NCBI GenBank assembly: GCA_000743035.1
Contig: CP008936.1
Location: 1,140,001 to 1,172,000, forward strand
Source of the DNA: Candidatus Paracaedimonas acanthamoebae
GTDB lineage: Bacteria > Pseudomonadota > Alphaproteobacteria > Caedimonadales > Caedimonadaceae
Reading direction: 5' to 3'
DNA length: 32,000 bases
Below, piece after piece: positions 3,626-32,000 of this stretch. The number at the start of each line of letters is the position of its first letter. Position 1 is the first letter of the stretch. Made by a program: the position numbers and the translations under genes. The notes under the pieces were generated by a model that did not search any database, was not told the origin of the DNA, and saw only the letters and a program-made list of their open reading frames with translations.

Positions 3626-3750
3626 AAGGGGGGTGACTTGTAAGTCTTTAAGCATCCCTGTTTTCTTTTAGTATCTAAGGCTTTCTCCCCAATTCGCCTT
3701 GAAGAACTTTTTGGAGACTATGGCAGCCCCCTGCTGCCCTTACTAAATGT
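3626..3750 (-). ncRNA. candidate small RNA or MITE-like element, copy 1 (paralogue of 31870..31982)
   Basis: The reverse complement of 3626-3750 aligns at roughly 70% identity with 31870-31982. Shared blocks are TTTAG.TA.GG.AGC.GGGGGCTGCCA, GGGGAG..AGC.TTAGATA, AAAACAGGGA.G.CTTAAAGA.TTA and TCACCCCC. On the minus strand TTGATA (3780-3775), a 16-nt spacer and TATATA (3758-3753) lie just upstream. The element sits ~75 nt upstream of the LysR ORF on the same strand. Confidence 0.3.
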
Positions 3751-4039
3751 AGTATATAAGAATCATTTTAAAAATATCAAGTAAAAAGTTATTGATTTTA
3801 TTGTATTATACCTTATTTCTTGCGATAAAAGATTTATATCTTATTTTTTAAAAAATTAATGTATCGTCAATCAATTGGTAAGGTATTGTTAAAATTATAT
3901 TAATAGTTTGTTAACTTTTTAGCGTAATGTACTATTGGTTAGCTCTTATGCATATTGTTCCATATAAAACTTAACTCTAAGAGAAAATCCGTCTATCTTG
4001 TGGTTGATTAGACATTAATGGGAGGCACGACGATTACTC

Positions 4040-17272: not shown

Positions 17273-20200
17273 TTAAAGATGACTTATTTTAATCCGGCGA
17301 ACCCAAGCCTGCCAATCTCGCGCGCCTAAATCTGATTCAAAAGATAATAACTCTTTCACAGTTTTCTCACAGATTGATATATCAGGCACAATGAGTTCTT
17401 GGTTCATGGATAAGACCAAACACTGAGTTTTACAGGCTTGTTGAAGATGGTAGGTATAAAATAGCGCCTCTTGGATTGTCTTCCCACAAGTTAAAGAACC
17501 ATGATTCCTCATGAGCAAGACATATTTATCTTGTAAATCATCGACAAGGGATTCTCCTTGGCTTCCATTAAGGGCTAACGAATTATAAGAATGATAGGTA
17601 ATCTGATTATAAAAATGCAAAGCCCATTGACTCAGCGGTTGCAAACCTTTTTTAAGCGCCGAAACAGCCACAATCTCAGGGGTATGGATATGAAAAATGG
17701 CATTAATATCAGGGCGCTTCTGATAGATAGCCCCATGAATAACATAGCCTGTTTTATTATATTGATACTCCGATCCTTCTAAAATTTCCCCATCAAAAGC
17801 AACCCGCAACAAACACTCAGGCGTTACTTCTTCAAAACAAAGACCAAACGGATAGATATAATATGCGCAACCATCTTCTGCACGTAAAGATAAGTGCGTA
17901 TAGGTATGGTCATCAAGCCCTAAGTAAGCAAGGATTTGATAGGCATAGGCGAGATCTCTTCTCAAAGTCATCTTCTGGTTCCTGCATTCTTCTCTACTTG
18001 CTTTGTAAGTATCATAAGCAATAAATAATTCTAAGGGAAAAAGGTACTCAAGTTGACCATCACGATAGAGTTCTGCGATTTCATTCGCACCTAACCCACC
18101 AAGTGTTCCTGCTACAATACTTCTGATCATCCCTTGAAGAGTGTCTTGAAGTCGAGCACCTCCAATTGTTGCATTTAATGCCCCTGAGACTCCCGCACGA
18201 ACCATATTGCTCTTCAAATGCTGCTGCCATCCTTCAGGTTGCTTGGGAAGATTAAACGTCCCACTTAGCTCATGCATCAACCCCGCACTGGCCATATTGA
18301 TGATGAACGATCTGGCAAACTCAGATGAGGTAAGAGCCTTCAGGTTCCCTGTCTGCACAAGAGACGAGGCCGCTTGGCTACTTATCGTCGAGAATCCTGC
18401 ATTGGTGACGGCAACACCCAACGAGGATAAACTCACTGCAGGCACCACGGTTGCTGTGCCGGTCGCTGCCACGGCTGGCACCATCCCAAACGCGGACTCC
18501 GCAAGCGCATTCATAAGCCCTGATGCCCACCCATAGGTTAAAAGACCTGCAGCGAGTCCCACCACCATCGCAAGGGCTTGATTCCCGCCTGGGCGATGGC
18601 CCACACAGAGATCATACAGCTCTTGACGAGGCGCCGGACGCGTAAGGTCAACATCTGGCGCTTCAGTGATCAACTCAGTTCGCACCTCAGGCCGATGACC
18701 TTGAATCTTCCCTTGCGCCTTCAACACAACCTTGCCAGGCATCGTGAGGGTGTTCGGGACCTGAATCTCTTGAGAGCCACCCCGCTCCCAAATCGCTCGC
18801 TTCTTATTATAAAGCTCTGTCTTTTGCGGCTGCATCACGCTGGCGTCTTCAACCGTCAGATCTCTCTTCGCCTCAATCAGAGCAGACCCCTTCTTCCCCT
18901 CCATCTCAACCCCCACCAGATGAATATCCTGATGAGAGAAAAGATGGATTGGCCCTTGCGAGAGGACCTTTGGCCGCACAACCCTATAACTTGGCCGCAT
19001 CCCTTCCTTGCGCATCCCGCGGCAACTCGTCGAATCCTCCATTAATGACCTCGTGATCAAAGGCGAAAGGTGCATCTTCTTTTGAGTCTCTGGCGACCAG
19101 CCTCCTTCCCCAACGATAAGGGTGACGCCTTGAGCAAACAAGGACTGAAGCTCTCTGACTTTCTCATACCCGGCAAAGATCTCTTGGATCTCTTTGGGAT
19201 CCTTCAAAACCCTGCCATATTTATAAAGGCCACTCACCTCCTCTGGAAGCGCTTCTGATAGGGTCACTGTCTGCTTCTTGATCTCCTTCTTCCTCTTCAC
19301 ACGACCCCAAACATTCTTCCGCTTCCACATCTTCTTCATCTCATGCGTCTCGGACCATGTGTGGTGCTGACGTTGAATCGCAAGATGCCCAACATCCTCA
19401 ATCAGCAGCTCTGTGTGAAGGGTTCCTGTCGTCAATAAGTCTTCAATATCTAACCACAAGATTTTTGACTTCATCTCACCAAGATCAATGTTGGCTTGCT
19501 CGGCATGAAGATCGAACTGATCCACCCATAAATCCCCCCCAGGTTGGGAAACATACTGAAACTTTTTAGGAAGCTTTGGCGCCTCTTTCTCCTTTTTCTT
19601 AAAAAACCCTATCAGCTTTGTCGAGGCTCCTTCTCTTATGAAAGGCTTGGGCGTTTGCTCGACACAATCCACCTGCTTTGTCACCTTCAAGGTCCCTGTC
19701 GTCAGAGTTCCTTTCTTGGCGATCAGGCGAGAGCGATCAAAATGCGTATGAGACCCTTTCTTCCCCAACAGATAGGCTTCCTTCTCTATGATTTGCGCGA
19801 GGTGATCACGGACATGAGGATCATGATAGGAAGGCGGCGTAATCAAATAAGAGCGCAAGGCTTGCCGATCATACTGCCCTTCAGGAAGGCTAAAAAGGAT
19901 CGGCTCATTCAGCTTCAGCGCCATCTCTTTCGGCAATGAGGATTGAAGGCCTTGGAATAAATGGGGGCCCCGCTCAATCAACGCTTGAGAAGGCGTATTC
20001 GCGGGCAAACCCAAAAGCTTCGGATTGTCAAGAAAAGGCTTAAGGTAAGGGAACAGATCCGCTCCATTTTGAATCACCTTGCGATGCAAAGAAAGGTAAT
20101 CTGGACATTCAGGTGTCAATGGCACATAGCCGATATTCTGCTGAAACGCCTCAATAAGAGCCTGTCCCTCAGCAAAGAAAGGAAGAACAAACGGAAGCTT

Positions 20201-23200
20201 CTCTGATCCTTTCGGCCCTAAAATCAGCCGTTTGCTTTTTTGAAGCTCTTCTTCCAAAGGATACTTAATGGGAACAAGCGGGATAAATAATGTCGACCCC
20301 TTCCCTGTCGAATCCAGCTTCACAAGGCTGGAAGACGCTCCCAAAGATAAAGGCATGACGGGCTGATAAGGAATGGCACGGCCAGACCGGCCAACCGTCT
20401 GCACCGTGAGCCCTTTTTCAAAAATAATGAGGAGCTTCGAGCCAATCATCTTTCCTTGAACTAAGGCTTCCTTTGCTCCAGTAAAGGCAATTCCCTGGCT
20501 TCCTTCCAGCTGAGGAAGGATTGAATAAAACCCATCCCTTTCAATCTCAATGGGCGAATCCCACGTAAAATAATCATCAATCGTTTTCTTTTTAGGACGT
20601 TTCGGGAACGCCTTATTCCACCGTTCATTTTGGAGAAGTTTTAGAATGTTTTTATTTTCCCATCCTCGGCGGGTTAAATCGGAGCATCTGGCCGGATGTA
20701 AAATCTCATAAGGCGTCTTATCAAGATGATAAATAATTCCTGACTTAAAGTGAAACACCGCCTCTATTTGATCAATAAATTCTTTCCCAACAATAGCTCC
20801 AGAGGCTAAAATAGATCCTCCATAGTTCCTTCCTTTCTGAATATCAAACCTTATATGGCCATTCACCTTGAAGCTCGGCGCTCTTCCTTGAGCAAGGCAA
20901 TAATCAATCCAATAAGGCGGAGAAAGACCTTCACCCACGCGCTGAACAGCTGGAATGAAATGATTAAAGAGAGCCCCCCTTATCGTCGCATTGCCCTTCC
21001 AAACCGCCACTGACGTCCCTGAAAAAGAACTCTCTTGATGGGCCACAACTTCCAAATGCTCATCCGCAACCACAATATTCCCGCCATGGCCATGGAAGGT
21101 TTGAGCCTCAAGCCTCATCCCCTCATTCGAGACAAATTGACTTTTATTGGGAATATACACGTCATAAGGCGCCTTAATGGCTGGCCCAATCGCATTCCCG
21201 CGGGATGTCTCATAGAATACCTTCCTTTTAATCCATCGCCCTAACGTAATGTCTTGCTCTGCCTTGATGTGAAAGAAATGATTGGAGAACACAATCCCTC
21301 GAACAAGGTCAAACGTTTTAGCATCGGTCGCTTCAAAAGAACCCCCACTCTGAATCTTGATCAAGGGAAGAGAAGGCTCTCCAACCCAAATAGCATGCCC
21401 TGAGGCTTTCAGCTGAAGCCCTTTGCCTGATGACAGATTTGCGTGTAGTTTTAAAGTTTGCGCGGTCTTGTGAGGGAGAACTTCAATCTTTATCCCCCCT
21501 TCCACCTCAAGAGGACGCCATAGCTTTCCTCCTTCCCGAAAAATCAGCTTTAAAAGGCCTAAGGTTCTTAAAGAATGGAGACCATAGTTGGCCACTCTCT
21601 CAGGGCACTTGGCCTTAATCTCAATTCCTTCTCGCCCTTCAACAAACGCCCCTCGAAAGTCATGGTAATGTCCCTCGATCTTAAGAACTTTTGCCGCTCT
21701 CACCTCTCCTGTATCTCGTTGCGAGAAGTTCCCCTTTAAAACAATGTTCCCTTGATCGCTGATCATCTTCCCATAGTTATACAGATTCCACAGATCCTCA
21801 TTATAAGAAGACGTTAAAATCTCAATTCCTTTTCTGGCTTCAAGGGTGGTCTTGTTCGTGAGCCCAGGACTTTCAACCCGTAGCTGTCCAAGCAATTTAA
21901 GAGGAATCTCTAATTTTTGGCAAGGCGGCAAGATAAGATGAAGCAACCCTGGGGTTTGCAGACCCTCTGTTTGATAAGAAAGGCCTTTTGCTGTCTTCAA
22001 TAAGACTTTCTGAGTGCCCTCAACAACATCCTTTAAGATAATATCCCCCTTCGTCGAGGTGATCTGAACGTGATCTGCCTGGATCTTTTTTTCAGCCACG
22101 ACGGAAGGCGCTTGGATAAAAAGTTCACCCCTCGTCTGTAGGGGGGGCGTTAACGTGAAGGCCTCTTGAAGAATAAACGAAAGCTTCGGCGTGTTCCCTT
22201 TGATCTCTTTCACCTTAAAAGGTTGTGTCACTGTAATAGAAGGACCTTCCAGGGTTAACTGTGTCTCTGGACTCTCAAGGGGCTGATTCAGTTGCTTATT
22301 GCCATCAAAGGCAAAGGTTACTAAAGGACATCCCTTAAAAACTGTGGGCAAATATTTAAGACCCCACTTATGCAACGTATGTACCTTCAAATGCTCTTTT
22401 ACCGTCATGGGGCCCTGCAAATAATTTAAATGCCCTTTAAAAGAAGCCTGCTGAGAGGTATAAATCTCCCCTTCTGGATAATGGGTGGTATTGCCCTCAA
22501 CATAAAGAGGACCTTCTTCACTCATCAGCTTTCCACGATTCACCACCCCAAACCCTTCTTCAACAAGAGGCGTCAAAAAGGTAAAGCCTTGTTTTGCGCG
22601 TAAGGAGGAAAAATTATAGGCTTGAGGGCCTTTAAAAAGAAAATGACCTAAAAGAGAAAGAGGAGATTTAAAATAAAGCCGAGATGGAGTGCTGATAATC
22701 TCTAAAGTCCCCTCTGTCTGCAGGCCTGAGGTTTGTGGCGTGATATTCGGGCCGCCGTCTTTGTAAGAAAGCCCCCCTCCGACTCGCAACGTGAGACCTT
22801 CAATACCCACAGCCCTTTCCTTCAACGTGATCTGACCCGGACTCTCAACTTGCAAGGTGTTATGGGCAAATACCTCTTTCTCTGAGCTCACCGATTGGCC
22901 CACAATCGAGATATCTTGCTTGCCGATAACGGTTCCTTTCAGCACAACAGGCCCTGAGGCTGATATTTTAAGGTCCCCCTCAACTTGAAGATCTTGCGTT
23001 GAGGTAAAAGCTGAAGAAGCAATCTCAACCTTTCCCCAAGCCTTGAGGGAAGTGGATAAAGCAGTCCCTGTAAACTTTAAGAAAGGTGTGTGAGCTTCCG
23101 TGATGGTCGCCTCTAAATGCTGTCCGATCTCTAACGACGGTCCTTCTAAGGAAAGAGGTCCTAACGTTTTAATGTCTTGTGTGAAGGTTGCAGGCTCTTG

Positions 23201-24580
23201 AAACACAAGCTTTAAGGCTTTCTCGGTCTTCAACTTTTGAGGATCATAGGTAAATCCTTGCTTGCTCTTGATCGTAAAAGCTGATTGAGGGTAAAGGTCC
23301 CCTTGCACCACATGCGTCTCACCTTCCATCTCAACGCCTTGATAGGCCCAAAGAAGTCCTTTTGTATGCTGAACATTCCCTTGAAGAATCACTTTCCCCT
23401 CTTCCGAGTGTAAAACGGCTTCATTGAGAATGGAGGGTGCTTTAAAGTGAACTGTTCCTTTGCCACTCATCCCCCCAAGGTTCTTTATAAGAGCAGCTTC
23501 GGCGGTTAAAGAACCTTTAAGGATAAGAGGATCTGAGAAAGTTAAAGGAGAGGTTGTTGAGATCAGCTCAAGCTTCTTAAATTCCGTCAAGCCCTTAAAA
23601 TCACATCCTTCAAAGTTTATGGCTTCAAGGTGGAGATGATCCCCCTGCAAATGAGGAAAAGTGCTGAGACCTTGGTGGGTCTTCACGTGAATCTTGTGAG
23701 CCTCAACCAAAGAAGAGGGATGCGAGATCATCTCCTTCCCTTCATAGGCAAACTGGCCTTCTTTCATCCTGAGCTGAGACTGGGAAGTCCGATGATCAAG
23801 GACCCGGCCATTTCTAAAGGTAAGACGCTTAACCCCTTTAATCTGATGATCATTCATCAGGTTATTCCCATGTAAATCAGCCGTCCCATCTTCTTTAAAT
23901 TTTAAAGTCCCTTGGTTTAAAAACGTCCCTTCATGAAGGTGGAGCTCTTGCACATTGAGGGTGCTGCTCCCCTCAATCTTAAAATCTCCATGTACAGCTA
24001 AAGTCTCAACATCAATCCCCTGTAACTCTTTCTGCAAATCTAAAGAAGCCATCGCCCGACTCACAACCCTTGGCGCACACGTCACAAGGCCTTTCACTTG
24101 AATCCCATCCTCAATAATAATGGCGCCCTCATTCTCGAGCCCAACTGTGGAGTTCTTCTGTCCTAAACCATCAAGCAATAATTTAATGTAAAGAGTGTTG
24201 TTGTCTTCCCCTTTAGGGCTTTTCAGGACCTGAATAGACTTCAAAAGAGCAGGATGGACAAACTGATAAACCTTCCCTTTCCAGCGATAAAAAGTTTGAA
24301 GCTGATCTTGGCTTTCTCGAAAGACCCAATCACAGTCCTTAAACTCTTCTCGTAATTTAGCACTCTCTTTTGAAAGGCTTATCGTAGAATGGGGAAAAGG
24401 TTTAGAAACATACGACCCTCCTTGCAAGCGAGCTTCTTGGAGGTCTGCTTGAATCGCTCCCAACCCCTCATGCGCCCACACAACACCTAAAAATATCTGC
24501 TGATAAATCAAAATATAGGTCAGAAAGATGCGACCCACATCACGCAATAATCCCAAAATCTTTGGCACACAAAATCTCAT
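17273..24580 (-). CDS. giant (2,435 aa) FhaB/CdiA-like beta-helical protein with a DUF637-like pretoxin region and a C-terminal class II aldolase/adducin-head domain
   Basis: Uninterrupted 7.3-kb ORF with GGGAGG 4 nt before the ATG and a hydrophobic N-terminus ([19 protein letters not shown]). The body is repetitive and G/L/K/T-rich. An FhaB-like block [21 protein letters not shown]...[13 protein letters not shown] lies at about nt 20,000-20,190. The Ala/Gly/Ser-rich DUF637-like segment spans nt 18,041-18,577 and ends in [17 protein letters not shown]. The last 232 aa (nt 17,276-17,971) match class II aldolase/adducin ([57 protein letters not shown]). Confidence 0.85.
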
Positions 24581-24940
24581 GCAACCTCCCTTTGCAACCT
24601 CAAAACCTCTCTGTCCCCTGCCTGTTCTCTCTTTTTATTATTATTTTACGTCTCTAAGCAGAGATCCCCTCAATCGCCCTTCCTCCAAACCTTCAATCAT
24701 CAATAAATAGACGACCAAGCTCTTTTAATCTATTACCCAACCAAAATGTCTCTTTCAAACTTTTTTATTCCTTTGGGACAATTTAGTCTCAACTCGCTCC
24801 CTCAAGATAAACAAACTAAAAATAGGAGAAAAGACCTCATAAAATCTAAAACTGGCTCTTTCGCTTTTCTCCCCTTTTCCGTATAAGCTCTTAGAATAAG
24901 CTATATGTACGCCGTGGTTTTTTCTCCCTCATTACACACC

Positions 24941-25735
24941 TTTCCCGCACGATGAGGACTCTTCTCTGGCACCTATTCACACCTTCTGGTTGCTTGAGAT
25001 CCCCGGCACAAGGCCGGGGATGACCGTATGGGTGATAGCCCTGAAGCTCATCAGTTTTCATTCCTTTGCTGTCAACCATTTTTTCTTCCTTTCTTTATTC
25101 ATTTTCATCTCTGCTCAGTCCTCACTAATGAGATCCAAGTTCTTCCATCTTCGTCATCCTAGGCCTTGTGCCTAGGATCTCAAGCGACCGTAAGATCTCA
25201 CCTACCACTACTCGATGTCTTCGGCCTTTCCTGGATCCCCGCCTCCGCGGGGATGACAATAGGAGTGTGCAGGAATGATACAAAAAAGTGTTTGTTGCCA
25301 TCCGTGCCTTTACTTTGCCTCTCCTCTTCCAGATCGTGCCTGTGACACACAAGTACGCCTCTCGGGTACCTTTACCACCTTCAGGCTGCCTGAGATCCCC
25401 GCCTCCACGGGGATGACCGTGTGGTCGATATGTTTCAAGTTCATCAGTTTTAATTCTTTTGTTTTCAATCATTTTTTCTTCCTTCCTTTAAGTTGTTTTA
25501 ATTTTCACTCAGACCTTACCTGTGAGTCCCAAGTTCCTTTGTATTTGTCATCCTCGGCCTTGTCCCGAGAATCTCAAGTAACCGATAGGTCTCACTCATC
25601 ACCTTTCGATGCCTTTCAGTCTTTCTGGATCCCCGCCTCCACGGGGATGACCCTTATAAATTTCAAACGTTGTCATTCTTGAACTTGTCCCGAGAATCTC
25701 AAGCGACCTGAAGATCTCTCCTGTCACCAACTTTT
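24941..25735. repeat. hairpin-repeat array 1 (modules X1-Y1-X2-Y2-partial Y3)
   Basis: Two ~400-bp units, each with three parts. The first is an ~85-nt X module ending in CTGAGATCC[stem-loop-stem]GGATGAC. The second is a ~128-nt T/C-rich spacer. The third is a Y module: GTCATCC[stem-loop-stem]GGATCTCAAG, then ~55 nt, then CTGGATCCCCGCCTCC(A/G)CGGGGATGAC. Hairpins lie at 25002-25020, 25161-25179, 25237-25253, 25398-25413, 25553-25569 and 25631-25646. Confidence 0.9.
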
Positions 25736-25770
25736 ACCTTTCCGCCATCAAATGCCCATTTCTTTCCTCT

Positions 25771-26007
25771 TTTCATCAGGCAAAGAGAGAGCCTTCGCTC
25801 AAAAAGAGCGTTAAAAGGTTTATTTCTTTAATAAATTGAGTTTGTGCTCCCTTTATTATTATTTTTATTGAGATGGATATAGAGACTTTAAGAAGAGGAC
25901 TTATCAAGGTTTATTTAACCTCAATAAGGGGAAGAGATTCGTCTCTAACCATCTACAACCAGACTATCATATCATGATACAAAAATCAAGAAAATTCAGC
26001 ACAAATA
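25771..26007 (+). repeat. conserved array tail, copy 1 (paralogue of 30859..31077)
   Basis: Starts TTTTCATCAGGCAAAGAG.G.G.C.TT.GCTCAAAAAGAGCGTT and ends TCTCT(A/G)ACCATCTAC...CATATCATGATACAAAAATCAAGAAAATTC. Both blocks are nearly identical in the two copies. The middle is diverged but alignable. Confidence 0.8.
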
Positions 26008-26212
26008 TCAAAAAATAAATACTTAATATCCATAGCTTATAAAATAATTATTTGGGTCCATAGTGACCTCTTATTCTTGATCACTTCATCATCCAAGCTT
26101 GGTGGTATCTTACTTACAGTGGTGAGCTTGTCCATTCTTCCACCATCGATAAAGGTTTTTTGATAGACAAAAAATTAAAAGTTTTCGCCTATCAAAAGCT
26201 GTGTTTGAACCC

Positions 26213-26246
26213 CCTATAAAAAAAGGTTAAGCAATTGCTTAACCTT
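26213..26246 (-). terminator. rho-independent terminator (perfect 26-nt palindrome) downstream of the 26424..26903 gene
   Basis: The palindrome is AAAGGTTAAGCAATTGCTTAACCTTT. On the minus strand it is followed by TTTTTTTAT. On the plus strand the U tract is weaker, so it is mainly a minus-strand terminator. Confidence 0.65.
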
Positions 26247-26423
26247 TTTAACATTCTTCTTTTCCACCTTAGCGTAACAATTACTCTATTTCTTCAACTT
26301 TTATTAAAGAGGTTGAAAAGGTGTTTGAAATTTTTACAGAATATAACGTAAAATCAACGATCAACATTTCAGGTACAAAGAATTGATATTGACCATAATA
26401 CCAACCATTCCCAGGTATTGAAT

Positions 26424-26903
26424 TCAACATAGACGTGGGCTTTGATTCGTACATTGATATCCCTTGAAACCCTGTAAGCCCGGTGCTTGAAAATACTTTA
26501 AAATTTCTGACGCACTCTTAATCGCAAAATCATGAGGCTTAAAAGTCTCTTCTCTCCATCCAATAGGAACTGCGGCAAGTTGATAATATTGACCAGCATC
26601 AACATCTTCATAAACTGTGAATTTTGCAAAAGGTAAAGTATAATTTTGGCGCATTTTCTGCGCAAAATCTTTGACTGCCTCTTCTGTCTTTATTTTACTG
26701 AAATCGTCTGCATATCGCTTCGCTTGCTTAAATATTGGTGAATCTAAAAAAATACGAGGATATTCTTCTACGCGACAAAGATTCTCCAAGACTTTATGTA
26801 TCGAACCCCCCTTGAGATCTGTTTCAATCAAACTCGCCTCACTGAGGTTAGAGAAAAGTAAACTTCCCAAAGCAATCTTTAAAAGCAAAAACTTCTTCAT
26901 CAT
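26424..26903 (-). CDS. secreted hypothetical protein (159 aa from MMKKF)
   Basis: The track ORF extends to 26987, but the internal start gives a classic signal peptide, MMKKFLLLKIALGSLLFSNLSEA|S. No recognisable domain. Confidence 0.6.
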   Translation of the reverse strand: MMKKFLLLKIALGSLLFSNLSEASLIETDLKGGSIHKVLENLCRVEEYPRIFLDSPIFKQAKRYADDFSKIKTEEAVKDFAQKMRQNYTLPFAKFTVYEDVDAGQYYQLAAVPIGWREETFKPHDFAIKSASEILKYFQAPGLQGFKGYQCTNQSPRLC

Positions 26904-27014
26904 ATGATTCCTCTTAGTTATTGTGCTTATTAGTAATATAAGAGTTTGCTTGCGCTTTATAAGCGTCATTCTAAAAAATAAGTCCAATATCTTCTTTGCT
27001 CCTTGGTGTGGCCC

Positions 27015-27386
27015 TTACCCCCGCACCAACTGCTGGAATTCGAGCACAGCTTCTCGGGTAATGGCATCGTCTTTAAGGGCTATGTCCTGGCGAACAAATC
27101 GGAACAATCCTAAGCTATTAGGTTCAAGAAGCACCTTATAACCCTCCAATTTCTCCTTCAAAAACGCCACAATTCGATCCATCTCCTGGGGACCTTTATA
27201 AGTGCTGACAGCCTTAAGTGTAAACGTGATCGTCCCTTTGTCTACCTCAGGAAAAGACCATGCTTGGCCAGTTTCTTCATAAATCACATAAGGTGGCTTA
27301 GCATCGGGAGGCACAAAGCCATATAAAGAGACTTCCCCTTTCAAAAGAGCTTCAATGGCGGGAAAAATGGAAACTATGGTCATCAT
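27015..27386 (-). CDS. DUF3168-type phage/GTA tail-completion protein (RcGTA g8-like)
   Basis: Its size (123 aa) and its position directly after the head-tail adaptor, with an ATGA overlap, fit the family. The sequence style LYGFVPPDAKPPYVIYEE...TFTLKAVS resembles the DUF3168 proteins that follow the adaptor gene in alphaproteobacterial GTA clusters. Confidence 0.6.
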   Translation of the reverse strand: MMTIVSIFPAIEALLKGEVSLYGFVPPDAKPPYVIYEETGQAWSFPEVDKGTITFTLKAVSTYKGPQEMDRIVAFLKEKLEGYKVLLEPNSLGLFRFVRQDIALKDDAITREAVLEFQQLVRG

Positions 27387-27750
27387 CCGCCTCTTTCATG
27401 ATCTTTTAGAGCCACCCCACAAAACTGTTGCCATCCCCTATTGGGAAGATATTCTGCATCTTCAAGAATCGCATAAGACGTGCGCGTTCCTTTAAGACGC
27501 ATCCCAGCCTTAATGGAGATATCTCGGCGGGCTGAAAACACATAGATAGGCTGTCCAAGATATCTTGCGCCTAAACATGGCCACATGTCACATGACCCAC
27601 ACGCCGTCGCACAGGATGCAACATCTCGCGCTTTACCCATAGGCGTCCAACATCTTGCCAGTCTTCTTCAACCCCACCTTCATGATCCGGCAAAAGATGG
27701 CTTTGTTGCACAAGAATGAGCTCTTGCAAGCTGTTTAAGGATGACTTCAT
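27383..27750 (-). pseudogene. phage head-tail adaptor / head-closure protein (RcGTA g7-like), frame-broken
   Basis: N-terminal part, by hand translation from ATG 27750: MKSSLNSLQELILVQQSHLLPDHEGGVEEDWQDVGRLWVKRE..., which stops at 27571-27573. The C-terminal part is in another frame (track ORF 27383..27640: ...IYVFSARRDISIKAGMRLKGTRTSYAILEDAEYLPNRGWQQF...). Together they resemble one ~120-aa adaptor protein. Confidence 0.6.
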
Positions 27751-27773
27751 GATTGATCTACCTTTTCAGATGA

Positions 27774-28394
27774 TTATCCTAATCGTTGAACGCGATAAGG
27801 TAGAATCAATTGAATAGCAGCTGGACTTAAAGAGGGGGGCACGCCTCGATTATCATTGCTGGACACGCGATTCTCAAAAAGCTCTGCCACCATCATCAAG
27901 ATTCCATGCTGAATTGACTCAGGAATATCATTATGATTCAGGCCATAGCCTGCTTTAAAATCAATTTGAATCATGCTGTTTTTGCTGGCTTCGAGGCTTA
28001 ATGTCTTCCCGAAATAAAGCTTTGCAACACGTCCTGCGGTATCAAGACGATAATCTTTCAGCTCACATTGCCGATAGGAATCAATAAGCTTTGGACAACT
28101 CAAGAGTTCGACAAAGGGTGAGCGTGGCAGTTCGATGCCTTGCTCATGCTGACGATGATTACCTGTTAGAAAACCATTATCACTTTTAGCAATACAGAAG
28201 CCTGCATTCACAGTAAAACGCCAAGTTTGATAAATGAGCGAGCGGGCTGTGAATGCTTCAACGGCCATTCGTGCTGTTTTAATAAGATGCTTTAAAAGCT
28301 CATCTTCTTCAGAACTTTCAATCCTTAAAAAGGCTTTCACATCCGCCAAAGTAACGGGCTCTTTTCCTGGATGTTGTAATAATGTTAGACTCAT
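27774..28394 (-). CDS. phage gp6-like head-tail connector protein (RcGTA g6-like)
   Basis: The N-terminus (TLADVKAFLRIESSEEDELLKHLIKTARMAVEAFTARSLIYQTW) is the typical head-tail connector motif. The length of 206 aa and the position directly after the capsid gene also fit. Confidence 0.75.
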   Translation of the reverse strand: MSLTLLQHPGKEPVTLADVKAFLRIESSEEDELLKHLIKTARMAVEAFTARSLIYQTWRFTVNAGFCIAKSDNGFLTGNHRQHEQGIELPRSPFVELLSCPKLIDSYRQCELKDYRLDTAGRVAKLYFGKTLSLEASKNSMIQIDFKAGYGLNHNDIPESIQHGILMMVAELFENRVSSNDNRGVPPSLSPAAIQLILPYRVQRLG

Positions 28395-28520
28395 TTTTTT
28401 TATTTTCCTTTAAAGGTTATCTTAACGATAAGACTATTAAAAAATTATTACGTGCTTGAGGAATGATCCCTAAAACTTCATTTTTTGTAAAAGTTTAAAG
28501 GAGTTCCCTCTCATCCTTTT

Positions 28521-29639
28521 TTAAGCCGCGAATGAAATTACTTTAATCGCTTCAAAATTGATCACATCACCCCCCACTCGCTTTGTGGTATAAAATTCCA
28601 CATACGGTTTTGAGCTAAACGGATCCCGCATAATGCGCATGCCCGCGCGATCAACAATTTGATAGCCTTCTTTAAAGTTCCCAAAAACGATGGATTTAGA
28701 TGCCGTTCCAGCCACTAAAGCCGGCATGTCTTCAGCCAAGACAACGGGATAACCAAGCAACGTTGGACTGATCTCATCAGCTAAACCTGGCTGCCATAGA
28801 TATTGGTGATTTTGATCTTTGAGTTTGCGGACCATGGCATGAGCGGAGCGTGACATCAACCACACAGCCCCTTTTTGGTACTCAGGCTTTAAAGCATTCA
28901 TGGTCTCAATTAAGATATCCGCCGCATTTTCATCTCAGAAAGCCCCATCCTTCCCTGTCTTAATATGTTCAAGCTTACCCCACTCCCATTGAGCGCGATC
29001 TTTCGTTTCATAGCTTAAAAAGCCTTTAGGCTTATTATCACCATCCCCATGGATAAAGGCATGATTTTCCACCTGAGCGAGTTTTGTGGCAATCCGACCC
29101 GCAAGCCATGACTCAACATCAACCCGCGCATCATCCAACAGTTTCTGGGTTGCGCGCGGCTTTGCATAGAGTTCATGCACGGGAATGCGCAACTTCATCA
29201 AATTTGGCGTCTTTGTTTCTTTCCGCTCTGCTGTCTCAGTCACCCACCCCACTTCAGCGCCTTCTTTATCCAACAAGAGCTCAATCGCACTTGCTGAAAT
29301 TGTCATGACGGATGAGATGGCACGAATCGGCGATAAATCCTGTAAATTTCGTCCAATGCGATCTGCAACCACTTGAGGAATAAGATAGCCCCCATCACCC
29401 TCAACCCCAGCGGTTAAGCTTTTTGTCTCCGCGCATTCCAGCTGTTTTGATTCTCCTTGCCGAACATAGTTGAGTAATGCTTTCTTTTGTTCCGTTTCTC
29501 CGTAAGAAAGTGAACCACTCGTCTCAAACGCCGGTCGTTTGGAAGCCACCTCAAGATGACGGAATCGTTCTTCTTGGCTCGCTTTAAATTCGCCAAAGGC
29601 GTGTGTTAATGTATCAATTGCTTCATTGACTGTATTCAT
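28521..29639 (-). pseudogene. HK97-family major capsid protein (RcGTA g5-like) interrupted by a single in-frame TGA
   Basis: Track ORFs 28935..29639 and 28521..28901 are in the same frame, separated only by TGA at 28937-28935 (...GKDGAF*DENAADILIETMNALKPEYQKGAVWLMSRS...). Capsid motifs present: DGGYLIPQ, SPIRAIS, GWVTETAERKETKTP, PVHELYAKPRATQKLLDDARVDVESWL, ENHAFIHGDGDNKPKGFL, LWQPGL, GYPVVLAEDMP and FYTTKRVGGDVINFEAIK. Confidence 0.8.
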
Positions 29640-29934
29640 TTTTAGTCTTCCTGTTTTTTCGTTTTTTTAATTTTAGTGTGCTGTTAGGCACGTTTTTTGT
29701 TTTATGGTTTCATTAAAACCTTTTGTTTTTTTGTTTTTTGGTATGAGGTCAACCGTTAAGCCTTTTCCTCAAGTGTTATGCTCTACGTTCTTTATGACAT
29801 TTCTGCCTCCCTTTGTTTTTTATCGTTAGTCATTGTTCATCTACTTCGCTGTATCTTCTTTTCTCATTTCTGCCCCGTCCCTCTCCCGCGCGGTTAGGGA
29901 TCTTTTGACACCTTTCGATACTCACCTTTTCCAC

Positions 29935-30790
29935 CGTTCCTCTCCCGTAGAGTGAAGACATCCTGGCGCCTCTCAGCATCCTCTGGTTGCCTGAGATCCT
30001 TGGGACAAGCCCAAGGATGACAGGATAAGGTGGTCATTCTCGGGCGTGTCCCGAGAATCTCAAGTAACCGATAGGTCTCACCCATCACCACTCGATGCCT
30101 GTCTTCTTCACACTGCGCCTCTCACGCACAATGAGGACTCTTCTCTGGTACCTTTCAGCATCTCTTTGTTGCCTGAGATCCCCGCCTCCGCAAGGATGAC
30201 AAAGAAGAAGCCAGGGCTGACAAAAGAAAGGATTTTTCCTCTATCGGAGCCTTTCCATGACTTTCCTCGTTTCAAAAGGTAAAACCAGAAAAATTGTCCT
30301 CTCGTTGTCACTAACTTCACGCCTTTTCTTTTCCAACTCGTGCCTCTCACACACGGTTGAGGACTTCCTGTCCGTCCCCTTATTTGTCATTCCCGCGAAG
30401 GCGGGAATCCATCCTCTGTTTTTCGCAAGCGTGCCTCTCAGGCGCACTTGGGACCTTCTGGCACCTATGCACATCCTCAGGTTGCCTGAGATCCCCGGCA
30501 CAAGGCCGGGGATGACCGTGTGGTCGATATGTCTCAAGTTCATCAGTTTTAATTCTTTTGTTTCCAATCATTTTTTCTTCCTTCCTTTATTGTTTTCATT
30601 TCTATTTAGTCTTCACCAATGAATTTCAAATCCTTACATTCTCGTCATCCTAGGCCTTGTGCCTAGGATCTCAAGCGACCTGCAGGTCTCTCCTGTCACC
30701 ATTTGTTGTCCTTCGGTCCTTCCTGGATCCCCGCGTCTCGCCTCGACGTAGACAGGATCTCAGGGAGAACAAGAGAGAGGCTAGGAATGA
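29935..30790. repeat. hairpin-repeat array 2 (X3-Y4-X4-X5 variant-X6-spacer-Y5)
   Basis: Same module family as array 1. Hairpins: CCTTGGG-ACAAG-CCCAAGG (29998-30016), TTCTCGGG-CGTGT-CCCGAGAA (30038-30058), a decayed CCCCGCCTCCGCAAGG (~30180-30195), GTCATTCCCGCGAAGGCGGGAATCC (30386-30410), CCCCGGC-ACAAG-GCCGGGG (30493-30511) and CCTAGGC-CTTGT-GCCTAGG (30651-30669). Confidence 0.9.
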
Positions 30791-30858
30791 CAAACCAACA
30801 CCTTTCAATCCTCCTTATTTTCCACCAAACCCTCTCCTTTTCCGTGCCCAACTCGGCC

Positions 30859-31077
30859 TTTTCATCAGGCAAAGAGGGGGCATTTGCTCAAAAAGAGCGT
30901 TCATTGGCTTTTAATGAGCTTTTAGGGCTCAATTTTTAATCGGACGGATGGAGGGAATTTTTGAAGAGGATTGAGAGCTTTTTTAAAGGCCCGCAAGGAA
31001 GTAAATTTCATCTCTGACCATCTACTAATAGGCTACCATATCATGATACAAAAATCAAGAAAATTCGCCCCAAATAT
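30859..31077 (+). repeat. conserved array tail, copy 2 (paralogue of 25771..26007)
   Basis: Same start and end blocks, in the same orientation, as the tail of array 1. Confidence 0.8.
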
Positions 31078-31316
31078 GTATTATTTTATTGTTTTAAATC
31101 AAGTAGTTGAAAGAATATTTTAACTTACCTAAATCTTCCAGATAATATCGATAGTTAGGCGGTTTCGTTCTGCCACCTAAACATTTAAGAATTAAATGAT
31201 GTTTTAGAACTTAAAGCTCTTTTTTTGAAGAGCATCCCCCTTAAGATAAAATATTCCTAAGTTTCTCTATAAGGTCCTTTGCATAACCATAAAAGCCTTT
31301 TCCGGCATCTCCTAAA

Positions 31317-31678
31317 CTCCGCTTTCGCGGAGATAACAAGATGAAATCCGAGGATAACAAGAAAGAATGCCTGAATATGCGCTTTTACTTTTCCTCTCCT
31401 CTTCCAGCTCATGCCTGTCACACAATTAGAAGCTTCTGCTACCTTTCACAGCATCCTCTGGTGGCCTGAGACCCCGTCACAAGGCCGGGGATGACGATGG
31501 AGACGTTGCTTATCCTATGTTTTCCTTTCCAACATCCGTTCTTATGTTTTCTTTCTCCCCCAACCTGTGTCATCCTCGGGCTTGTCCCGAGAATCCCAAG
31601 CGACCGGAAGACCTATCCCGGCCCCAATCAATGCCTTTCCTTCAGTATTCTCTGGATCCCCGCCTGTGCGAGGATGAC
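31317..31678. repeat. hairpin-repeat array 3 (extra hairpin + X7 + short spacer + Y6)
   Basis: Contains CTCCGC-TTTC-GCGGAG (31317-31332) and an X module ending in a decayed hairpin, GAGACCCCGTCACAAGGCCGGGGATGAC (~31468-31495). A ~74-nt spacer follows. The Y module is GTCATCCTCGGGCTTGTCCCGAGAATCCCAAG (31569-31600) ... CTGGATCCCCGCCTGTGCGAGGATGAC (~31652-31678). Confidence 0.85.
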
Positions 31679-31834
31679 CTAACAGAGCTTTTTTGTCTCT
31701 AACAACACCATGTTTATTTCTTATTCATCACGCTTTTTTGACATTTTAGGATTACCTATGATGAAAAAAATGAGATATAAAACTTTTATCGCAACAAACG
31801 AGATAAAAAGCAATAAAATCAAGCACTTTTATAC

Positions 31835-31863
31835 TTGCATTTCCAATAAGAGCTCGCTATGAT
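31835..31863 (+). promoter_or_regulatory. sigma70-like promoter candidate (TTGCAT-N17-TATGAT) in front of element copy 2
   Basis: TTGCAT at 31835-31840, a 17-nt spacer, and TATGAT at 31858-31863. AT-rich DNA produces such matches by chance, so this is weak on its own. The paralogous copy at 3.7 kb has comparable boxes at the same relative position. Confidence 0.3.
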
Positions 31864-31869
31864 GTTTTT

Positions 31870-31982
31870 AGATAGGTAGCTGGGGGCTGCCAAAGCGTTC
31901 ACTAAAGATCCTAGCAAGTTAGGGGAGGGAGCTTTAGATAAAAAAACAGGGAAGGCTTAAAGATTTAACATCACCCCCACCA
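31870..31982 (+). ncRNA. candidate small RNA or MITE-like element, copy 2 (paralogue of 3626..3750 minus strand)
   Basis: Roughly 70% identity to the reverse complement of 3626-3750. GGGGG (31882-31886) and CCCCC (31974-31978) could close a long stem. The local hairpin GGTAGC-TGGGG-GCTGCC (31875-31891) differs from copy 1 (GGCAGC-AGGGG-GCTGCC) by a change that stays paired (G-U) only in this transcription sense. Confidence 0.3.
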
Positions 31983-32000
31983 ATTTCTTAAGTTTTTCAT

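Follow-up and report, generated by a model that had tools for sequence, protein, structure and literature searches.

CGTC-tagged hairpin arrays of Candidatus Paracaedimonas acanthamoebae resemble the surroundings of ssn-like nuclease genes in related genomes

Repetitive extragenic palindromic (REP) elements bearing a CGTC tag form a mainly alphaproteobacterial superfamily, which includes RPE-6 and RPE-4 of Rickettsia and dRS3 of Neisseria (Di Nocera, De Gregorio and Rocco, 2013; PMC3733652). Their tag is unpaired and terminal and reads CGTC, with the variants TGTC and CCTC; the stems, of 8 or 9 bp, start with A-T and then T-A, the loops have 4 nucleotides (nt; family 1) or 5 nt (families 2-4), and the tail is mostly CCA (PMC3733652). 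CGTC REPs occur mostly as head-to-head dimers with conserved spacers, often as heterodimers, and their stems vary within a family (PMC3733652). No dedicated transposase is known for them, genes of REP-associated tyrosine transposases (RAYTs) are not associated with them, and the families were proposed to be possibly heading toward extinction (PMC3733652). Here, three hairpin arrays are described in 32,000 nt of the genome of Candidatus Paracaedimonas acanthamoebae (contig CP008936.1, positions 1,140,001 to 1,172,000 of the forward strand; this whole stretch is the window, and coordinates refer to it), arrays that are probably mosaics of cassettes that once surrounded, or were copied from around, a small nuclease gene, ssn.

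The product of that gene in Neisseria meningitidis, SsnA, is a 94-amino-acid (aa) single-domain GIY-YIG protein (cd10448) that binds the NTS hairpin (CGTCATTCCCGCGMAVGCGGGAATCYRG) as single-stranded DNA (ssDNA) only and on that strand only, does not bind RNA, and cuts a few nucleotides upstream (5') of the tag (Chenal et al., 2025, Nat Commun 16:2388; PMC11893778). This biochemistry was established for Neisseria and Wolbachia, the Wolbachia pipientis enzyme having been verified in vitro, and the N. meningitidis enzyme was shown to be inactive once the palindrome sequence is altered, even if the structure is kept (PMC11893778). An Ssn-related motif (SRM) lies near 71% of ssn homologues, and symbionts are overrepresented among the genomes that carry more than 300 SRMs; an origin of Ssn cassettes similar to that of insertion sequences (ISs) was put forward in the same study as a hypothesis only (PMC11893778).

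The window contains 16 oriented hairpins of the form NGTC-AT-stem-loop-stem-AT-tail, all of them within three arrays (24939-25742, 29935-30750 and 31299-31680) and none elsewhere. Fifteen are oriented matches to a covariance model that was trained on 38 distinct hairpins and applied to the window at a cut-off of E<=0.02, each match lying inside one of the arrays, and an NTS-like hairpin at 30385-30412 is the sixteenth. Array 1 consists of two units with a period of 393-394 nt (~394), followed by a third, partial Y module (repeat families D1-D5). Within a unit the order is X-left, X hairpin, a T/C-rich spacer of 128 or 129 nt, Y hairpin, about 50 nt termed Y-right, and a third hairpin. The X hairpin has the form TGAGATCC-stem-ACAAG-stem-GGATGAC, the Y hairpin is of the same type but inverted, and the third hairpin carries GGATCCCCGCCTCCRCGGGGATGAC. 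The pattern TGAGATCC-N5-ACAAG-N5-GGATGAC has nine matches in the window at up to three mismatches (0.00 expected in shuffles), and GGATCCCCGCCTCCRCGGGGATGAC has six (0 expected). The features of the arrays are the following; loci from other genomes, which were gathered by hairpin or tail pattern, bear numbers that begin with L.

24939-24994, plus strand: X-left of unit 1, repeated at 25306-25390, 29935-29991, 30118-30173, 30430-30486 and 31381-31466
24995-25024, minus strand: X hairpin 1, on that strand GGTC-ATCCCCGGC-CTTGT-GCCGGGGAT-CTCA, with a perfect 9-bp stem and a 5-nt loop (covariance model, 52.3 bits, E 3e-17)
25025-25152, no strand assigned: 128-nt T/C-rich spacer of unit 1, separating the two hairpin heads of a head-to-head dimer
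25153-25182, plus strand: Y hairpin 1, CGTC-ATCCTAGGC-CTTGT-GCCTAGGAT-CTCA (51.5 bits)
25183-25231, plus strand: Y-right 1, ~50 nt from the Y hairpin to hairpin 3, aligning to L034 961-991 and 1332-1361
25232-25257, minus strand: hairpin 3 of unit 1, on that strand TGTC-ATCCCCGC-GGAG-GCGGGGAT-CCAG, with an 8-bp stem, 4-nt loop and CCA tail (CGTC-1/NTS type)
25306-25390, plus strand: X-left of unit 2 (repeat families D8 and D5)
25391-25417, minus strand: X hairpin 2, an X flank with the 8-bp, 4-nt-loop hairpin ATCCCCGT-GGAG-GCGGGGAT (28.3 bits)
25418-25546, no strand assigned: 129-nt spacer of unit 2, 94% identical to 30517-30643 over 87 nt
25547-25576, plus strand: Y hairpin 2, ATCCTCGGC-CTTGT-CCCGAGAAT, with an imperfect stem and one mismatch to the pattern (39.7 bits)
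25577-25625, plus strand: Y-right 2 (repeat family D1)
25626-25651, minus strand: hairpin 3 of unit 2, with an 8-bp stem, 4-nt loop and CCAG tail
25672-25742, plus strand: third Y module, partial and decayed, a degenerate hairpin with Y-right (D1 at 70%, two mismatches, 33.3 bits)
29935-30750, no strand assigned: array 2, with hairpins at 29992-30021 (minus), 30033-30062 (plus), 30174-30200 (minus), 30385-30412 (plus, NTS-like), 30487-30516 (minus) and 30644-30673 (plus)
31299-31680, no strand assigned: array 3, with a decayed hairpin at ~31313-31337, X at 31467-31495 (minus), a 73-nt spacer, Y at 31569-31598 (plus) and hairpin 3 at 31653-31678 (minus)

Array 2 additionally holds a decayed hairpin 3 at 30726-30749, and includes one dimer in which X and Y are 11 nt apart and one in which they are separated by 127 nt (30517-30643). 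The spacer of 127-129 nt is conserved within and between genomes, with copies at 75-86% identity in L034, L049, L020 and L039; likewise, X-left copies that are 70-85% identical occur in the metagenome-assembled genomes (MAGs) of Caedibacter sp. 37-49 and 38-128, and the TAGGC stem of Y hairpin 1 recurs in Y modules of the Caedibacter MAGs and of Paracaedibacter symbiosus. The inverted arms of X and Y, 42-44 nt long, are 83-85% complementary (I4, I6), and when 24965-25260 is folded as ssDNA, X pairs with Y (dG -48.6 kcal/mol, z = -5.9). In the X(-)/Y(+) pairs the tags face each other and the stems differ (CCGGC versus TAGGC). Tandem Repeats Finder reported no array repeats. A first-pass annotation had described a two-unit array 1 and an array 2, with coordinates and sequences for array 1 that agree with the region as re-read; the modular anatomy and the alternating orientation that it proposed are supported, and the window indeed encodes no transposase, RAYT or integrase, whereas the third array and the partial third Y module were missing from that description.

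The hairpin family is not a new one, and the core of the observation is explained by published work. In common with CGTC REPs, above all CGTC-1 and CGTC-3/4, the window copies have the GTC tag, stems starting with AT in every case, an 8-bp, 4-nt-loop class (six hairpins; hereafter 8/4) next to a 9-bp, 5-nt-loop class (seven; 9/5), head-to-head heterodimers with conserved spacers, and an alphaproteobacterial host. The X-128 nt-Y unit is a head-to-head CGTC REP heterodimer, which is the commonest CGTC REP arrangement. Twelve of 13 detected window hairpins have stems without any unpaired position. All 16 copies have an invariant GTC, preceded by T in seven copies, by G in six and by C in three, whereas the family shows C or T. 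The tails are mixed: four of the six 8/4 hairpins have CCA (CCAG or CCAT), but the two in X flanks (25395-25417 and 30178-30200) have CTC, as do all but one of the 9/5 hairpins (31569-31594 has CCC). The spacer of 127-129 nt is longer than the usual 20-100 bp. The survey of CGTC REPs (PMC3733652) took in no Holosporales.

The resemblance extends to the hairpins recognized by Ssn. The hairpin at 30385-30412 agrees with the Neisseria NTS consensus at 26/28 positions and is the one strict match in the window to the SRM search sequence HGTCWYN(0-2)YYVSBRHN(0-5)WNVSBRGN(0-2)RNCYNB, against 0.09 expected. Allowing one mismatch adds four further array hairpins, where chance alone would give 2.5 in the window, and overall the hairpins other than 30385-30412 are one or two positions off this hand-made pattern; hairpin 3 of unit 1, for instance, has four mismatches to the NTS consensus and one to the SRM pattern. 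Shared with the NTS/SRM-Ssn system are the oriented hairpin, which has a (C/T)GTCAT tag 5' of it and a C directly behind the stem, the intergenic clusters, the intracellular symbiont hosts and, in related genomes, a gene for a 94-aa single-domain GIY-YIG protein that is bordered by hairpins at either end (SRM-ssn-SRM). Conversely, most window copies, with their 9-bp stem and CTTGT loop, stand 1-2 positions off the published pattern, the conserved flanks of 55-85 nt, the 128-nt spacer and a polar tail of ~300 nt are absent from the description by Chenal et al., and the window is devoid of ssn.

Selection on stem pairing was already proposed in the first-pass annotation, which saw compensatory changes under constant flanks. 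A scan of 185,579 species genomes with TGAGATCC-N5-ACAAG-N5-GGATGAC yielded 78 loci; since this pattern fixed the flanks and loop only, the stem positions were free to vary in the covariation test. The two N5 segments are fully complementary in most of the 78 loci, with at least 15 different stems under the same flanks and loop. Among the 38 distinct hairpins from these loci and the window, all five free pairs covary (score 0.432, versus 0.117 in shuffles), 91.5% of cells are paired (73.6±1.4% in shuffles), and 60 cells are doubly changed, compared with 19.7±3.8 and a value reached by 0/500 shuffles. As a control, sliding the 3' partner by 1-3 columns in either direction lowered pairing to 26-48%. 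The claim of compensatory change is therefore statistically sound, but it does not set these elements apart from REPs as had been suggested, because variable stems under a constant tag were already described for CGTC REPs (PMC3733652) and for SRM-Ssn pairs (PMC11893778). Five or more stem sequences are found together within a single genome (CCGGC, TAGGC, TTGGG, TCGGG and the 8-bp CCCCGC/TTCCCGC types), as seen in the window arrays, L017, L068 and L012.

The 78 loci are nearly all alphaproteobacterial. Their hosts include the two Caedibacter MAGs, Paracaedibacter symbiosus, Holosporaceae, Rickettsia and Wolbachia, as well as Rhizobium, Agrobacterium, Microvirga, Maricaulis and Parvularculaceae. 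A broader hairpin search, for GTC and AT followed by 6-7 nt, a 4-5-nt loop, the complementary segment and AT, detected 230 hairpins in the loci and window, versus 21 in shuffles. Two classes dominate, one with a 9-bp stem, a 5-nt CTTGT loop and a CTC tail, the other with an 8-bp stem, a 4-nt GAAA, GAAG or GGAG loop and a CCA tail, and the first tag base of the 230 hairpins is T in 120, C in 73, G in 22 and A in 15. Against the 16 hairpins of the 32-kb window stand 45 in 80 kb of Caedibacter sp. 37-49 loci, which were themselves selected for a hairpin. Pattern searches of viral contigs retrieved no copy of hairpin or tail. Matches in Bacteroidaceae and Bacteroidales (L013, L019, L042-L044, L051, L055, L059, L066) have 'stems' that are not complementary, mostly CTCAC/GTTCG; most have an inverted copy of a similar GTCAT-tagged motif 10-40 nt away, so that the two copies can pair with each other. 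In L019 and L066 a GIY-YIG open reading frame (ORF) lies 1.4 kb from the motif, possibly the form that the Ssn motif takes in Bacteroidota.

When 1620 ORFs of the loci were compared all against all, no transposase family emerged, whereas a GIY-YIG ORF of ~94-102 aa recurred. In five independent alphaproteobacterial loci (L009, Wolbachia; L014; L017, Caedibacter sp. 37-49; L028, Holosporaceae; L034, Caedibacter sp. 38-128) this ORF lies 20-66 nt upstream of a hairpin. The hairpin is 3' of the ORF in L014, L028 and L009; in L017 and L034, hairpins flank the ORF on both sides and the whole is embedded in arrays homologous to those of the window. Both of these ORFs encode 94 aa, match only PF01541 in Pfam, and carry Y6, Y17 and E64, the SsnA residues that were mutated in the N. 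meningitidis study (by residue count, in the same numbering). NCBIfam has no specific model for the GIY-YIG ORFs, and their sequence relatives in the PDB are UPF0213 proteins only. In the Wolbachia endosymbiont of Cantharis cryptica (L009 5272-5568), the ssn-like gene has an in-frame stop and is therefore a probable pseudogene.

The layouts of L017 and L034 relate the window modules to this gene. In L034, read in the direction of ssn, the tail is followed by ~600 nt, ssn, the reverse complement of the first 30 nt of Y-right, the Y hairpin, the 128-nt spacer, the X hairpin, the reverse complement of X-left and an 8/4 hairpin. The order of L034 630-2131 is that of window 30339-31077, the two being colinear but for a stretch of 913 nt with ssn, in whose place the window has 158 nt. 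Likewise, the window Y modules (25153-25257 and 25547-25651) align to L034 932-991 plus 1332-1420, with a single gap of ~340 nt that equals ssn and its leader; hence the 105-nt Y module corresponds to an SRM-ssn-SRM shell with its tags outward and, judged from this alignment, looks like an empty cassette (9-bp hairpin, 55 nt, 8-bp hairpin). In L017 the cassette reads X hairpin, reverse complement of X-left, ssn, reverse complement of Y-right, Y hairpin, the X-left complement being the immediate 5' flank of the ssn ORF, and window 30033-30200 (Y hairpin, Y-right, X-left, X hairpin) is the gene-less version of it. From the two cassette layouts it follows that X-left and Y-right are the 5' and 3' flanks of ssn. 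Gene-less copies may have arisen by loss of ssn, or the flanks may have been copied without the gene.

Array 2 can be compared with its orthologue. Locus L103, whose contig shares 99.6% identity with Caedibacter sp. 38-128, is 86% identical to window 27650-29747 and has an array and a tail at the orthologous position, which indicates that the arrays are older than the divergence of the two organisms. The two share the same Y hairpin and the same first X hairpin (29992-30021), and the second X hairpin (30487-30516) differs by a compensated change (CCGGC/GCCGG versus CCGGT/ACCGG); the modules around the hairpins are 75-85% identical and rearranged, and the 128-nt spacer follows different X hairpins. 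Internal array order thus changes, and the hairpins are preferentially preserved.

Arrays 1 and 2 are each followed by a conserved module of ~300 nt, the tail:

25760-26057, minus strand: tail 1, the ~300-nt conserved module closing array 1
30786-31124, minus strand: tail 2 with a preceding PRE segment, following array 2; the part that duplicates tail 1 is 30858-31124 (D10, D13)

Tail 2 has a 78-80% identical orthologue in Caedibacter sp. 38-128 (L103/L074). The tail is multi-copy in the Caedibacter MAGs (alignments of 13 and 19 copies were made) and was found in L006, L012, L017, L020, L034, L039, L063, L068, L073-L075 and L079-L122; a search pattern with 30 specified bases, run on metagenomes and viral contigs, gave 44 more loci in the former and none in the latter. 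Its position is strictly polar: within 1.5 kb of 30 distinct tails from genome and metagenome loci, 63 REPs lie on the array side and 3 on the other. The consensus of the tail alignment contains a conserved block, GAATTTTCTTGAWWTTTGTATC-N4-TATGGTAGTCTGGTTGTAGATGGTCAGAGATGA, and on the minus strand of tail 1, TTGATT, 17 nt and TAGTCT are directed into the array, followed by a hairpin (25928-25900) whose stem varies across copies. The consensus suggests a promoter (-35 TTGAWW, 17-nt gap, -10 TAGTCT) pointing into the array, in tail 1 at about 25965 on the minus strand. In L017 and L034, one sampled locus per MAG genome, the tail is upstream of ssn and in the direction of its transcription. RNAalifold predicted almost no structure in the tail, and a hairpin drawn by hand received modest support (60.6% paired versus 55.2%). 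Copies of the tail free of hairpins occur 240-420 nt upstream of unrelated genes, such as a pair of GatC-like and GatA-like ORFs (identified by eye) in L093.

The explanation favored here, to which we assign a probability of roughly 0.7, is that the hairpins are CGTC REPs/SRMs and that the arrays are mosaics of gene-less ssn cassettes, ended by a tail and built by duplication and recombination. By analogy with SsnA, an Ssn protein of ~94 aa with a GIY-YIG fold would bind window-type hairpins when they are single-stranded, on the GTCAT strand only, and would cut a few nucleotides 5' of the tag; replication, repair, transcription bubbles and incoming DNA could provide the single strands. Cassettes appear to be joined head to head via the 11-nt or the conserved 128-nt spacer, and because of this joining the predicted cuts of neighboring hairpins fall in the spacer, on opposite strands, whereas a cassette with outward tags would be cut just beyond both ends, again on opposite strands. 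Parts of cassettes probably duplicated and recombined to form the arrays, with repeated flanks reshuffling the mosaics, and the hairpins would be kept intact either via selection for Ssn recognition or via repeated copying.

Several points weigh against this explanation. The window has no ssn gene, so that Ssn in the source organism is an assumption, and only one of the 16 hairpins fits the SRM pattern strictly, with four more off by one position. Given the sequence specificity of N. meningitidis SsnA (PMC11893778), one enzyme may not serve five or more coexisting stem types; this diversity may reflect one relaxed enzyme, several paralogues, or mostly inactive copies. The ORFs of L017 and L034 appear to be Ssn-type nucleases, as judged by length, PF01541 match and residue positions. 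Moreover, ssn could have inserted into an array instead of having been lost elsewhere, cassette mobility is conjecture, and since the loci were chosen by hairpin or tail pattern, the associations found among them carry an ascertainment bias.

A more far-reaching and clearly tentative proposal, which we consider less probable than its opposite, is that SRM-ssn-SRM is a replicator of the RAYT/REPIN type, in which every genome would have a single master ssn cassette that gives off 105-nt Y modules and similar shells without the gene; if these insert beside hairpins already in place, where Ssn cuts, polar arrays would grow from the promoter-bearing tail. If true, this would constitute the first comparative evidence for the IS-like origin hypothesized by Chenal et al., and CGTC REPs would gain the dedicated enzyme that eluded Di Nocera et al. 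To the published work, the present analysis adds the occurrence in Holosporales, the polar tail and the finding that the X and Y modules trace back to ssn flanks, and a Caedibacter-like (Holosporales) symbiont joins the symbiont genomes that carry Ssn-related hairpins. The match between Y module and cassette, together with the polar tail, offers a testable handle on how hairpin families without transposase multiply and on whether Ssn cassettes are, or once were, mobile. For annotation, spurious ORFs across the arrays are explained and likely recombination-prone intergenic mosaics are marked.

Mobilization by other enzymes accounts less well for the arrays. The first-pass annotation suggested a RAYT or an IS200/IS605 TnpA elsewhere in the genome as a partner, which would make the units REPINs (REP doublets forming hairpins) or bacterial interspersed mosaic elements (BIMEs) like those of E. 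coli. Inverted REP doublets that fold into one long hairpin and alternate in orientation are BIME-like indeed, the arrangement of a single-copy enzyme gene between its own hairpins with many gene-less copies is common to both systems, and a RAYT, being typically single-copy, could lie outside the window. However, the tag is GTC(AT) and not GTAG, CGTC REPs are without RAYT association (PMC3733652), and the gene between these hairpins, inside homologous arrays of two related genomes, encodes a GIY-YIG nuclease instead of an HUH Y1 transposase. A tblastn search with E. coli RayT gave no match in either the window or the loci of the Caedibacter lineage, a weak result given the single query and partial genomes, and 5.5 kb separate the one distant match, in a Rhizobiaceae MAG, from a hairpin; the RAYT explanation is accordingly given very little credence. 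Equally improbable is a classical MITE (a miniature transposable element with inverted repeats), that is, an internally deleted IS with terminal inverted repeats of ~30-44 nt moved by a DDE transposase. The 42-44-nt arms around a core of 127-129 nt and the multiple copies in several genomes recall such short non-coding units with inverted ends (for example, the Correia elements of Neisseria), and a unit of ~190 nt had been called MITE-like; this unit consists of two different REPs placed head to head around a conserved spacer, its 'terminal inverted repeats' being the two REPs plus ~15 nt. These ends are independent REP hairpins that are found alone and in other combinations, X occurs with spacers of 11, 20 or 73 nt, and its flanks can carry the other hairpin type. 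No target-site duplication can be defined, as the units abut other modules, there is no parental IS, and the 1620 ORFs of the loci include no multi-copy transposase ORF. Integron attC sites and CRISPRs were likewise considered and rejected, the conserved spacers being without ORFs, the orientation alternating and R-box motifs being absent. Further parallels are the NIMEs of Neisseria (dRS3 together with other repeat families), which, as outlined in PMC3733652, are large intergenic mosaics in which CGTC-1-type hairpins alternate with modules of 50-150 nt; in that outline the interleaved modules are unrelated in sequence, whereas those of the window are traceable to ssn flanks. An association with surface-protein genes as in Neisseria was rejected, the genes beside the relatives' arrays being mostly ordinary housekeeping genes.

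A role mainly at the RNA level, as terminators, mRNA stabilizers, processing sites or a structured RNA made from the tail promoter, would be in keeping with the frequent transcription of REPs and their effects on mRNA fate (PMC3733652) and with the promoter-like site of the tail, directed into the arrays. In 12/18 cases the next real gene runs in the same direction as the tail, which is not significant (p=0.12), the hairpins lack U-tracts, and arrays lie upstream of genes as often as downstream. Rfam detected only a tRNA in the window at gathering thresholds and nothing beyond chance-level matches over 24600-26400 even at E<=5, and the unpaired GTC tag and strict orientation are DNA-recognition features of Ssn, which binds no RNA (PMC11893778), so that this role is judged unlikely. 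The possibility that the arrays are inert relics of a past expansion, with no Ssn left and no current activity, is also considered improbable as a general account. It would agree with the lack of ssn in the window, the stop codon in the Wolbachia gene of L009, the proposed path of CGTC families toward extinction (Di Nocera et al., PMC3733652) and the decayed copies at 25672-25742, 30726-30749, ~31313-31337 and 31467-31495. Yet nearly all detected stems are fully paired, orthologous hairpins are identical or compensated in surroundings that are only 75-85% identical, and both related MAGs have intact ssn genes. Relic status is thus possible for some decayed copies and fits poorly with the preserved, compensated stems.

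The window is that of a low-GC alphaproteobacterium and encodes an NtrY-type sensor kinase and other two-component proteins. ORFs that overlap the units (25125-25472, minus; 25275-25682, plus; 30241-30567, minus; 30257-30622, plus; 24891-25079, minus; 30380-30571, minus) have no Pfam family. One short frame runs from the 128-nt spacer through the X hairpin (25418-25472 within 25125-25472, 24891-25079 and 30380-30571, all minus), with a ribosome-binding-site-like AAAGGAAG-N6-ATG and the translation MIxNKRIKTDELxxYxPxGHPR...; it is kept between units because 9/5 and 8/4 hairpins differ by exactly 3 nt. Although it looks conserved, it has no Pfam match and was rejected as coding because the start codon is lost in L034; it is probably non-coding.

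Immediately downstream of array 1, in minus-strand terms, lies an ORF of 2435 aa (17273-24580, minus), in which a DUF637 region (possible hemagglutinin) is oddly fused to a class II aldolase/adducin domain at the C-terminus (E 1e-42). At its 3' end (~17.3-18 kb) the GC content rises from ~33% to 45-52%, which suggests a foreign island reaching the window end. The remnant of a head module of an HK97-type phage or gene transfer agent (27015-29639, minus), bracketed by array 1 and tail 1 on one side and array 2 and tail 2 on the other, is shared at 86% identity with Caedibacter sp. 38-128 (L103 1-2109); its capsid gene (28521-29639) is split into ORFs 28935-29639 and 28521-28901, and it includes a connector resembling gp6 (27774-28394) and a tail-completion protein resembling gp17 (27015-27386). 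A second repeat family of ~200 nt forms an inverted pair 28 kb apart (3714-3918 and 31761-31987, with a 66-nt core that is 83% complementary) and recurs, with identities reaching 92%, in loci from Caedibacter MAGs and from metagenomes (L039 4688-4922, L024 2732-3023, L119 1388-1639). Finally, a perfect 30-nt palindrome at 26220-26249, AAAAAGGTTAAGCAATTGCTTAACCTTTTT, which is unrelated to the hairpin family, is located downstream of ORF 26424-26987 and looks like a bidirectional terminator.

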